From IMG/VR virus record IMGVR_UViG_2698536618_000030: 25,572 nt of DNA; one strand, written 5' to 3'. A model generated the notes under the pieces. That model searched no databases and was not told where the DNA came from. It worked only from the letters and a program-made list of their open reading frames with translations. The DNA is from a virus. Its lineage: Duplodnaviria > Heunggongvirae > Uroviricota > Caudoviricetes. Below, piece after piece: positions 21,553 through 24,951 of this stretch (its first letter is position 1; the number at the start of each line of letters is the position of its first letter). The translations under genes and the position numbers were made by a program.

Positions 21553-24500
21553 ATGGGTAAAGGCAGCAGTAAGGGGCATACCCCGCGCGAAGCGAAGGAC
21601 AACCTGAAATCATCCCAGCTGCTGAGCGTGATAGACGCCATCAGTGAAGGGCCGATTGAAGGTCCGGTGGAGGGATTAAAAAGTGTGCTGCTGAACAGTA
21701 CGCCAGTGCTGGACAGTGAGGGGAATACCAATATCTCCGGTGTCACGGTGGTGTTCCGGGCTGGTGAGCAGGAGCAGACACCGCCGGAGGGATTTGAATC
21801 CTCCGGCTCCGAGACGGTGCTGGGTACGGAGGTGAAGTACGACACGCCGATTACCCGGACCATTACGTCGGCAAACATCGACCGTCTGCGCTTTACCTTC
21901 GGTGTGCAGGCACTGGTGGAAACCACTTCAAAGGGGGACCGGAATCCGTCGGAAGTCCGCCTGCTGGTTCAGATACAGCGTAACGGTGGCTGGGTGACGG
22001 AAAAAGACATCACCATTAAGGGCAAAACCACCTCGCAGTATCTGGCCTCGGTGGTGGTGGATAACCTGCCGCCGCGCCCGTTTAATATCCGGATGCGCAG
22101 GATGACGCCGGACAGCACCACAGACCAGCTGCAGAACAAAACGCTCTGGTCGTCATACACCGAAATCATCGATGTGAAACAGTGCTACCCGAACACGGCA
22201 CTGGTCGGCGTACAGGTGGACTCGGAGCAGTTCGGCAGCCAGCAGGTGAGTCGTAATTATCATCTTCGCGGGCGCATTCTGCAGGTGCCGTCGAACTATA
22301 ACCCGCAGACGCGACAATACAGCGGTATCTGGGACGGAACGTTAAAACCAGCATACAGCAACAACATGGCCTGGTGTCTGTGGGATATGCTGACCCACCC
22401 GCGCTACGGCATGGGGAAACGTCTTGGTGCGGCGGATGTGGACAAATGGGCGCTGTATGTCATCGGCCAGTACTGCGACCAGTCAGTGCCGGACGGCTTT
22501 GGCGGCACGGAGCTGCGCATCACCTGTAATGCGTACCTGACCACACAGCGCAAGGCGTGGGATGTGCTCAGTGATTTCTGCTCGGCGATGCGCTGTATGC
22601 CGGTATGGAACGGGCAGACGCTGACGTTCGTGCAGGACCGACCGTCGGATAAGGTGTGGACCTATAACCGCAGTAATGTGGTGATGCCGGATGATGGCGC
22701 GCCGTTCCGCTACAGCTTCAGCGCCCTGAAGGACCGCCATAATGCCGTTGAGGTGAACTGGATTGACCCGAACAACGGCTGGGAGACGGCGACAGAGCTT
22801 GTGGAGGATACGCAGGCCATTGCCCGTTACGGTCGTAACGTCACGAAGATGGATGCTTTTGGCTGTACCAGCCGGGGGCAGGCACACCGCGCCGGGCTGT
22901 GGCTGATTAAAACAGAACTGCTGGAAACGCAGACCGTGGACTTCAGCGTGGGCGCAGAAGGGCTTCGCCATGTGCCGGGCGATGTCATTGAAATCTGCGA
23001 TGATGACTATGCCGGTATCAGCACCGGCGGGCGCGTGCTGGCGGTGAACAGCCAGACCCGGACGCTGACGCTCGACCGTGAAATCACGCTGCCATCCTCC
23101 GGTACCACGCTGATAAGCCTGGTTGACGGAAGTGGCAATCCGGTCAGCGTGGAGGTTCAGTCCGTCACCGACGGCGTGAAGGTGAAAGTGAGCCGTGTTC
23201 CTGACGGCGTTGCTGAATACAGCGTATGGGGGCTGAAGCTGCCGACGCTGCGCCAGCGCCTGTTCCGCTGCGTGAGTATCCGTGAGAACGATGACGGCAC
23301 GTATGCCATCACTGCCGTGCAGCATGTACCGGAAAAAGAAGCCATCGTGGATAACGGGGCGCACTTTGACGGCGACCAGAGCGGCACGGTGAATGGTGTC
23401 ACGCCGCCAGCGGTACAGCACCTGACTGCCGAAGTCACCGCAGACAGCGGGGAATATCAGGTGCTGGCGCGCTGGGACACGCCGAAGGTGGTGAAGGGCG
23501 TTAGCTTCCTTCTTCGCCTGACCGTGGCAGCGGATGACGGCAGTGAGCGGCTGGTCAGCACGGCCCGGACGACGGAAACCACATACCGCTTCAGGCAACT
23601 GGCGCTGGGGCGTTACACGCTGACAGTCCGGGCGGTAAATGCGTGGGGACAGCAGGGCGATCCGGCGTCGGTATCGTTCCGGATTGCCGCACCGGCAGCG
23701 CCGTCGCGGATTGAGCTGACGCCGGGCTATTTTCAGATAACCGCCACGCCGCATCTTGCGGTTTATGATCCGACGGTACAGTTTGAGTTCTGGTTCTCGG
23801 AAAAGCGGATTGCGGATATCAGGCAGGTTGAAACCACAGCCCGCTATCTTGGCACGGCGCTGTACTGGATAGCTGCCAGTATCAATATCAAACCGGGCCA
23901 TGATTATTATTTTTACGTTCGCAGTGTGAACACCGTTGGCAAATCGGCATTTGTGGAGTCCGTCGGTCGGGCGAGCGATGATGCGGAAGGTTACCTGGAT
24001 TTTTTCAAAGGCAAGATAACCGAATCCCATCTCGGCAAGGAGCTGCTGGAAAAAGTCGAGCTGACGGAGGATAACGCCAGCAGACTGGAGGAGTTTTCGA
24101 AAGAGTGGAAGGACGCCAACGATAAGTGGAATGCCATGTGGGCTGTCAAAATTGAGCAGACCAAAGACGGCAAACATTATGTCGCGGGTATTGGCCTCAG
24201 CATGGAGGACACGGGGGAAGGCAAACTGAGCCAGTTTCTGGTTGCCGCTAACCGTATCGCATTTATTGACCCGGCAAACGGGAATGAAACGCCGATGTTT
24301 GTGGCGCAGGGCAATCAGATATTCATGAACGACGTGTTCCTGAAACGCCTGACGGCACCCACCATTACCAGCGGTGGCAGTCCTCCGGTATTTTCCCTGA
24401 CATCAGACGGAAAGCTGACCGCTAAAAATGCGGATATCAGTGGCAGTGTGAATGCGAACTCAGGGACGCTCAACAACGTCACGATTAATGAGAACTGTCA

Positions 24501-24951
24501 GATTAAGGGGAAACTGTCAGCCAACCAGATTGAAGGTGATATTGTCAAAACGGTCAGCAAGTCTTTCCCCCGCACGAGCACTTATGCCAGTGGCACCATC
24601 ACGGTAAGAATCAGTGATGATCAGAAATTTGACCGGCAGGTCATGATACCGCCAGTGTTATTCCGCGGTGGTAAGCATGAGAATTTCAACAGTAATAACC
24701 AACAGTCATACTGGTATTCAACCTGCCGGTTAAGAGTGACCCGCAATGGTCAGGAGATTTTTAATCAGTCCACGACGGATGCTCAGGGCGTATTTTCCTC
24801 AGTTATAGATATGCCTGCCGGACAGGGGACGCTGACACTGACATTCACCGTATCTTCATCAGGAGCGAATAACTGGACACCAACAACCAGTATCAGCGAT
24901 CTGCTGGTTGTGGTGATGAAAAAATCCACAGCAGGTATCAGTATCAGCTGA
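21553..24951 (+). CDS. J: Central tail fiber / host-specificity protein gpJ (1132 aa) with a C-terminal domain that differs from lambda
   Basis: ORF track 21499..24951; start at [20 protein letters not shown]... preceded by GAGAGG; lambda-like for about the first 1000 aa, last roughly 130 aa different. Confidence 0.9.

Follow-up and report, generated by a model that had tools for sequence, protein, structure and literature searches.

Two tail tips of experimentally defined receptor are the closest described relatives of the protein discussed here, the product of gene J (tail tip or central tail fibre protein) in a 25,572-nucleotide stretch of Escherichia coli prophage DNA, virus record IMGVR_UViG_2698536618_000030 (Caudoviricetes). 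This whole stretch is termed the window in the following. The first reference, A8 gpJ, is a fusion protein in which lambda gpJ is joined at residue 964 to the C-terminal part of gpJ from a natural E. coli prophage (Brodel et al. 2024, PMC11338833). A8 particles delivered a cosmid into MG1655 deleted for lamB and ompC solely when an ompC allele was supplied, and they were functional with OmpC from MG1655 as well as from EDL933 (PMC11338833). Since the side fibre borne by these particles, a P2 chimera, binds lipopolysaccharide (PMC11338833), the OmpC dependence belongs to A8 gpJ. The second reference is J ('tail fiber protein') of the Stx2a siphophage vB_EcoS_phi330 (PV189401), termed phi330 here. 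Of the 54 Keio outer-membrane mutants exposed to this phage, 53 were lysed, among them lamB732, ompF746, fhuA766 and fadL752; the exception was ompC768, on which lysis was restored by Plac-ompC (PMC12502783).

The best understood member of the family is lambda J (NC_001416; PDB entries 8xcj, 8xck and 8iyk), whose receptor is LamB. In the complex with LamB each tip domain inserts its four bottom loops into the porin, the three domains move apart, and the change passes up the fibre until the tail tip opens; in this open state the lambda tip clashes with the loops of OmpC (Ge and Wang). Phage 21 likewise has LamB as its native receptor and uses OmpC or OmpF only by mutation, with I1025T as the first step (Meyer laboratory). 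Compared with these systems, the J tip encoded in the window very probably recognises OmpC instead of LamB. We assign a probability of about 0.9 to this reading, judged from near-identity to both reference tips.

Gene J and its divergence from lambda

Gene J occupies positions 21553..24951 on the + strand and encodes 1132 amino acids plus stop, which is the length of lambda J and of the RefSeq gpJ coding sequence in the closest prophage. Over residues 1-1132 the protein scores 2336.5 bits against NCBIfam NF049904 lambda_TipJ (cut-off 1950), and its Pfam domains FNIII-A_GpJ, Phage-tail_3, Ig_J, Ig_J_second, Phage_Tail_Tip and Ig_GpJ_C follow each other as in lambda J. This domain order, together with the place of the gene after M, L, K and I, identifies it as a lambda-type J. 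The open reading frame itself spans 21499..24951 (+); 18 codons at 21499..21552 are open upstream of the lambda-equivalent ATG. A start at 21499 was rejected, because lambda and RefSeq both begin at the ATG equivalent to 21553, and the 18-codon extension is probably not translated.

In a BLASTP comparison the protein is 90% identical to lambda J overall, but the identity is distributed unevenly. Residues 1-972 (21553..24468, +), which comprise the hub domains, the FNIII domains, the helical shaft and the greater part of the central straight fibre, match lambda at 947 of 972 positions (97.4%). The corresponding DNA is 95.8% identical, and 89 of the differing codons are synonymous and 25 non-synonymous. 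In contrast, residues 973-1132 (24469..24951, +), which form the last turns of the straight fibre and the receptor-binding domain, agree with lambda in only 72 of 165 aligned columns (43.6%) and require three small insertions or deletions (indels) located in loop regions. This falls short of the high identity to the lambda J tip, its receptor-contacting bottom loops included, that would be expected of a LamB-binding tip of the lambda type. The contrast between the two parts of J is highly significant (Fisher p = 1e-66). A preliminary description of this DNA, made from the letters alone, had claimed such a difference at the C-terminus and had named a high-identity alignment to lambda J as the observation that would contradict it; no such alignment was obtained.

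The transition between the two parts is sharp. Mismatches to lambda first cluster at 24462-24473, and from 24523 to the stop codon the identity is about 50% in every 90-nucleotide bin. From mismatch positions and identity bins, a recombination junction is placed at 24462..24473 (+), where a conserved stretch ends and the identity to lambda collapses. The tip had previously been placed at 24470 to 24951, with the C-terminal end ...AGISIS*, and both limits agree with these measurements. The lambda-like part, put there at about 1000 residues, does match closely; its exact extent is 972 residues.

Residues 1009-1132 (24577..24948, +) represent the Ig-like receptor-binding domain proper, Pfam PF12421 Ig_GpJ_C. 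These last 124 residues match the family, described as 'Tip attachment protein J, C-terminal receptor binding domain', with 129 bits (cut-off 26.2). Because of this match the tip is a diverged homologue of the lambda tip carrying the same Pfam domain, and not an unrelated or foreign domain. The earlier term 'non-lambda' is thus appropriate for the sequence class of the module, but not in the sense of an unrelated domain.

Receptor of the J tip

The last 160 amino acids of J are identical (160/160) to those of phi330 J. Compared with A8 gpJ, 158 of 160 residues agree (98.8%), and the only differences within the module are S1009N and T1010S. The two codons concerned (24577..24582, +) specify Ser and Thr in the window and in phi330, and Asn and Ser in A8. 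The comparison with J proteins of known receptor, which the preliminary description had proposed as a check, therefore yields near-identity over the whole module to two tips, both of them OmpC-dependent.

Structural databases lead to the same reference. In a PDB sequence search with the last 216 residues, chain 9wca_J ('A8 gpJ 713') was retrieved with E = 1e-135, and lambda J chains with about 1e-68. Entry 9wca bears the title 'Closed state of A8 gpJ 713 central tail fiber' in the Foldseek listing. A search with E. coli OmpC revealed that 9wcb, 'Open state of A8 gpJ 713 central tail fiber with OmpC G17 from E. coli EDL933', holds three OmpC chains beside three A8 gpJ chains. The A8 DNA in the supplement of PMC11338833 aligns with positions 24292-24951 of the window and encodes the T-N-S-Y variant that is also present in the PDB chain; therefore, the name A8 links the paper and the structure.

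The window protein resembles A8 gpJ also in its architecture, with a lambda-type body joined to the tip at practically the same junction (residues 964-973). A8-lambda is an engineered fusion, whereas the window protein belongs to a natural prophage, and in contrast to A8-lambda its body differs from lambda at 25 residues. With phi330 it shares the identical tip, a Lom protein of 97% identity, and presumably the receptor requirement, namely OmpC but not LamB. However, phi330, a Pankowvirus, otherwise resembles lambda only to a limited extent, and the remainder of its J is much more diverged. For A8 and phi330 the OmpC dependence is experimentally established, and we infer the same behaviour for the window protein. 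The earlier expectation of a different outer-membrane receptor is hence well supported, since tips that are identical or differ at two residues need OmpC and not LamB, and a complex of A8 gpJ with OmpC has been solved.

Divergence from lambda would not have sufficed for this assignment, as is evident from phage 21. Its J (OL657228) belongs to the same domain family, aligns with the window tip without indels and is 81% identical over the last 160 residues, with about 30 substitutions scattered over the domain from the counterpart of window residue 1008 to that of residue 1103. The phage 21 tip lies at the same distance from lambda as the window tip, yet it uses LamB. Divergence alone is therefore no proof of a receptor change, and the window tip could in principle be a diverged form that still recognises LamB. 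The residue at position 997 fits this alternative as well. It is the position whose Ile-to-Thr change (I1025T in phage 21) conferred OmpC use on phage 21, and that substitution is ruled out for the window, which keeps the isoleucine. Consequently, an OmpC specificity of the window tip would have to lie in the approximately 30 other differences from phage 21. Yet 81% identity is well short of near-identity to the phage 21 type, and the closer references argue clearly in the other direction: phi330, whose tip is the same in all 160 residues, is able to lyse the Keio mutant lacking LamB and is blocked only by the loss of OmpC, the entry of A8 particles into cells deleted for lamB depends on OmpC, and the structure of A8 gpJ with OmpC is available. 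It is thus highly improbable that the tip has diverged without a change of receptor.

A second OmpC-specific member of the family, J of phage 434 (OL657226), has a tip that is only 44.9% identical to that of the window and constitutes a separate tip class. OmpC use therefore occurs in at least two distant tip classes, and the class of phage 434 either reached OmpC independently or diverged long ago.

An OmpC assignment might also be correct but incomplete, if OmpC were one of several receptors or if a further surface component were needed. Evolved variants of phage 21 and lambda J can use two or three porins simultaneously, and the A8 and 1A2 tips accept different OmpC alleles. On the other hand, the ompC knockout, which still had OmpF, LamB and the other proteins, was not lysed by phi330 at all, in contrast to the remaining 53 single mutants. 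We therefore regard this extension of the receptor range as improbable and retain OmpC as the receptor.

Several observations weigh against the OmpC reading or limit its reach. A relative with 81% identity in the tip, phage 21, is natively LamB-specific and gains OmpC use by one substitution, and for this reason receptor choice is labile within this tip family. In line with this, the assignment draws on reference tips of 98.8-100% identity and not on family membership. OmpC is itself polymorphic: two of 23 OmpC variants were served neither by A8 nor by 1A2 (PMC11338833), and therefore the host range within E. coli is incompletely predicted. AlphaFold2 models of the last 216 residues reached a predicted local distance difference test score (pLDDT) of only 48.4 from the single sequence and 55.6 with a 17-row alignment of database homologues, both too poor for an analysis of the loops. 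Finally, the capsid gene is broken (see below), and J may currently serve no viable phage.

Origin of the tip

The J gene of the window is a natural chimera, in which codons 1-972 are of the lambda type and codons 973-1132 derive from another lineage. This lineage, from which the downstream lom gene comes as well, is represented in numerous lambdoid prophages, Stx prophages and phi330 included. Presumably, the conserved sequence immediately before the junction was the site of a homologous recombination that brought about the exchange. In phi330 the identical 160-residue tip is carried by a J protein that is only 76% identical overall and has a different helical-shaft segment, which is direct evidence of module exchange. 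Together with the sharp junction, this supports the host-range module swap suggested in the preliminary description.

The exchanged segment, described earlier for the C-terminus of J, does include the J tip but continues through lom. Downstream of 24509 only two short DNA matches to lambda remain. The lom gene (25018..25572, +; Ail/Lom family outer-membrane protein) is cut by the end of the window and is a non-lambda allele; the partial protein shares 42% of its residues with lambda Lom and 97% with phi330 Lom. Between J and lom a hairpin resembling an intrinsic terminator is located at 24969..24998 (+), with a stem of 8 bp followed by TTTTTATT; one such site was found versus 0.2 expected by chance. 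The non-lambda block thus comprises the J tip, the putative intergenic terminator and lom. It starts within J and extends at least to the end of the window, with its right end beyond it.

As an alternative to a foreign segment, the tip could have diverged rapidly in place under diversifying selection. The J tip is reported to evolve quickly under receptor selection, and the domain in the window is homologous to that of lambda. But the identity, about 96% before the junction, has fallen to about 50% some 10 nucleotides later and stays low, including synonymous sites, the intergenic region and lom. Moreover, phi330 combines the identical tip and a 97% identical lom with a different J backbone, and tips that are 100% identical at the amino acid level occur in several Stx phages. 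Divergence in place is therefore extremely improbable. A recombinational exchange is the preferred explanation, because the low identity runs through the intergenic region and lom and because the phi330 backbone differs.

Tip structure and putative mechanism

The two low-confidence AlphaFold2 monomer models of the tip mentioned above are all-beta. In the homologue search, the 120 listed matches were nearly all partial E. coli J fragments with 75-97% identity and hence brought no additional diversity. With the second model, Foldseek retrieved 9wca, 9wcb, 8xck and 8xcj as top hits, with TM scores of about 0.47. The Ig-like fold of the window tip was not taken from these models but from the solved chain with 98.8% identity.

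Candidate contact regions can be transferred from phi330, whose residue numbers are lower by 90. In the AlphaFold3 model of the phi330 authors the hairpin E953-S962 is situated inside the OmpC barrel, and the hairpin A1015-P1020 on the barrel rim (PMC12502783). The equivalent predicted hairpins of the window protein are E1043-S1052 (24679..24708, +) and, by alignment, A1105-P1110 (ANNWTP; 24865..24882, +). At the site of the first, the window protein has five more residues than lambda J; the two proteins have the same overall length, and their tips the same Pfam domain.

By analogy with lambda and LamB, the trimeric Ig-like tip domain would dock on the trimeric porin OmpC and not on the maltoporin LamB. 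Docking would spread the three tip domains, and a signal passing up the fibre would open the tail tip. The 'closed' state of A8 and its 'open' state with OmpC suggest that the same opening mechanism may apply here. Thus, the mode of signal transmission is presumably shared with lambda J, although the receptor differs.

Prophage context

The window covers the half of a lambda-like E. coli prophage that contains the late genes. Positions 5984-24509 are colinear with lambda 1-18461 at 97-98% identity, and over its full length the window aligns with a prophage in E. coli O39:NM F8704-2 (99.4%). Upstream of cos, positions 1..5983 hold a DLP12-like late region with ybcN, ninE, ybcO, rusA, ylcG, quuD, a porin gene, essD, rrrD, rzpD and bor/iss, according to the F8704-2 annotation. 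The window thus combines a late region of the DLP12 type with head and tail genes of the lambda type. A scan of the window with Rfam gave no match at the gathering thresholds.

The major capsid gene E (about 12117..13210) carries a lesion at 12676..12745, where 71 nucleotides replace the lambda dinucleotide TA (6693-6694). The insert (net +68 nucleotides) causes a frameshift with a stop at 12750-12752. IS621 is an element with a bridge-RNA recombinase, and 69 nucleotides of the insert correspond to the first 69 nucleotides of its left end with 100% identity; in other genomes this 69-nucleotide segment lies 123 nucleotides upstream of the transposase gene. A full IS621 is present at exactly the same position of E in E. 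coli O103 RM8385 and in at least 10 other complete genomes, and the right-hand junction of the window was found in none of the complete genomes searched. Durrant et al. reported ATCAGGCCTAC and ATCGGGCCTAC as targets of IS621, and the insertion site in E, ATCGAAGC-CT-ACGCG, is similar to both. The lesion is either the result of a later deletion of most of IS621 or an assembly fault. In either case the sequence as given does not permit the formation of a capsid. Since E is frameshifted, this gene would have to be repaired before the prophage could be revived for adsorption experiments, as had been suggested. The left end of IS621 matched no Rfam family. At a chromosomal IS621 copy (locus L007, 1422..1499) the adjoining sequence is naRNA4 (Rfam, 78 bits), an RNA derived from repetitive extragenic palindromic (REP) elements, which is consistent with the insertion of IS621 into REP elements.

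An intact porin gene of the OmpC/NmpC/OmpD type (360 amino acids) is located at 2063..3145 on the - strand, between the Q-like antiterminator gene and the lysis genes. Its product scores 504 bits against Pfam Porin_1 and 512 bits against the NCBIfam OmpC subfamily, and it is annotated as OmpD or NmpC in related phages. In F8704-2 the gene is split by an IS3-family element. Phages of the PhiR temperate series carry the same tip and porin. If the porin is expressed in the lysogen so that OmpC is reduced or displaced, a tail tip directed at OmpC and a porin that substitutes for this receptor would occur together in one prophage. We consider this pairing possible but unlikely; the porin is also present in phages with other tip types. 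If it were true, the porin would protect the lysogen against superinfecting lambdoid phages of the OmpC type, which form a very large population. Such a receptor replacement has been described for phage PA-2 and its Lc porin.

Prevalence and significance

A search of 5426 complete E. coli genomes with the segment 24470-24951 gave matches in 2854; the identity was at least 99% in 904 records, and single genomes held up to 10 copies. The equivalent tip segment of lambda (18422..18903) was matched in only 98 of these 5426 genomes, in all cases with at least 99% identity, and the five records listed for it are laboratory strains (K-12 and B derivatives and DE3 lysogens). Several Stx1a and Stx2a phages of the phage collection carry a tip with 100% amino acid identity. 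Hence, the tip type of the window is the one usually found in nature and the most frequent J tip of E. coli genomes, and that of lambda is the exception.

The tip class, its receptor and its receptor-bound structure are already published or deposited, so that the finding is real but ordinary. As the case of phage 21 illustrates, a sequence divergence from lambda J does not permit the reading of a receptor change without a characterised, near-identical reference. With such references at hand, the receptor of the tail of this prophage can be stated as OmpC with high confidence.

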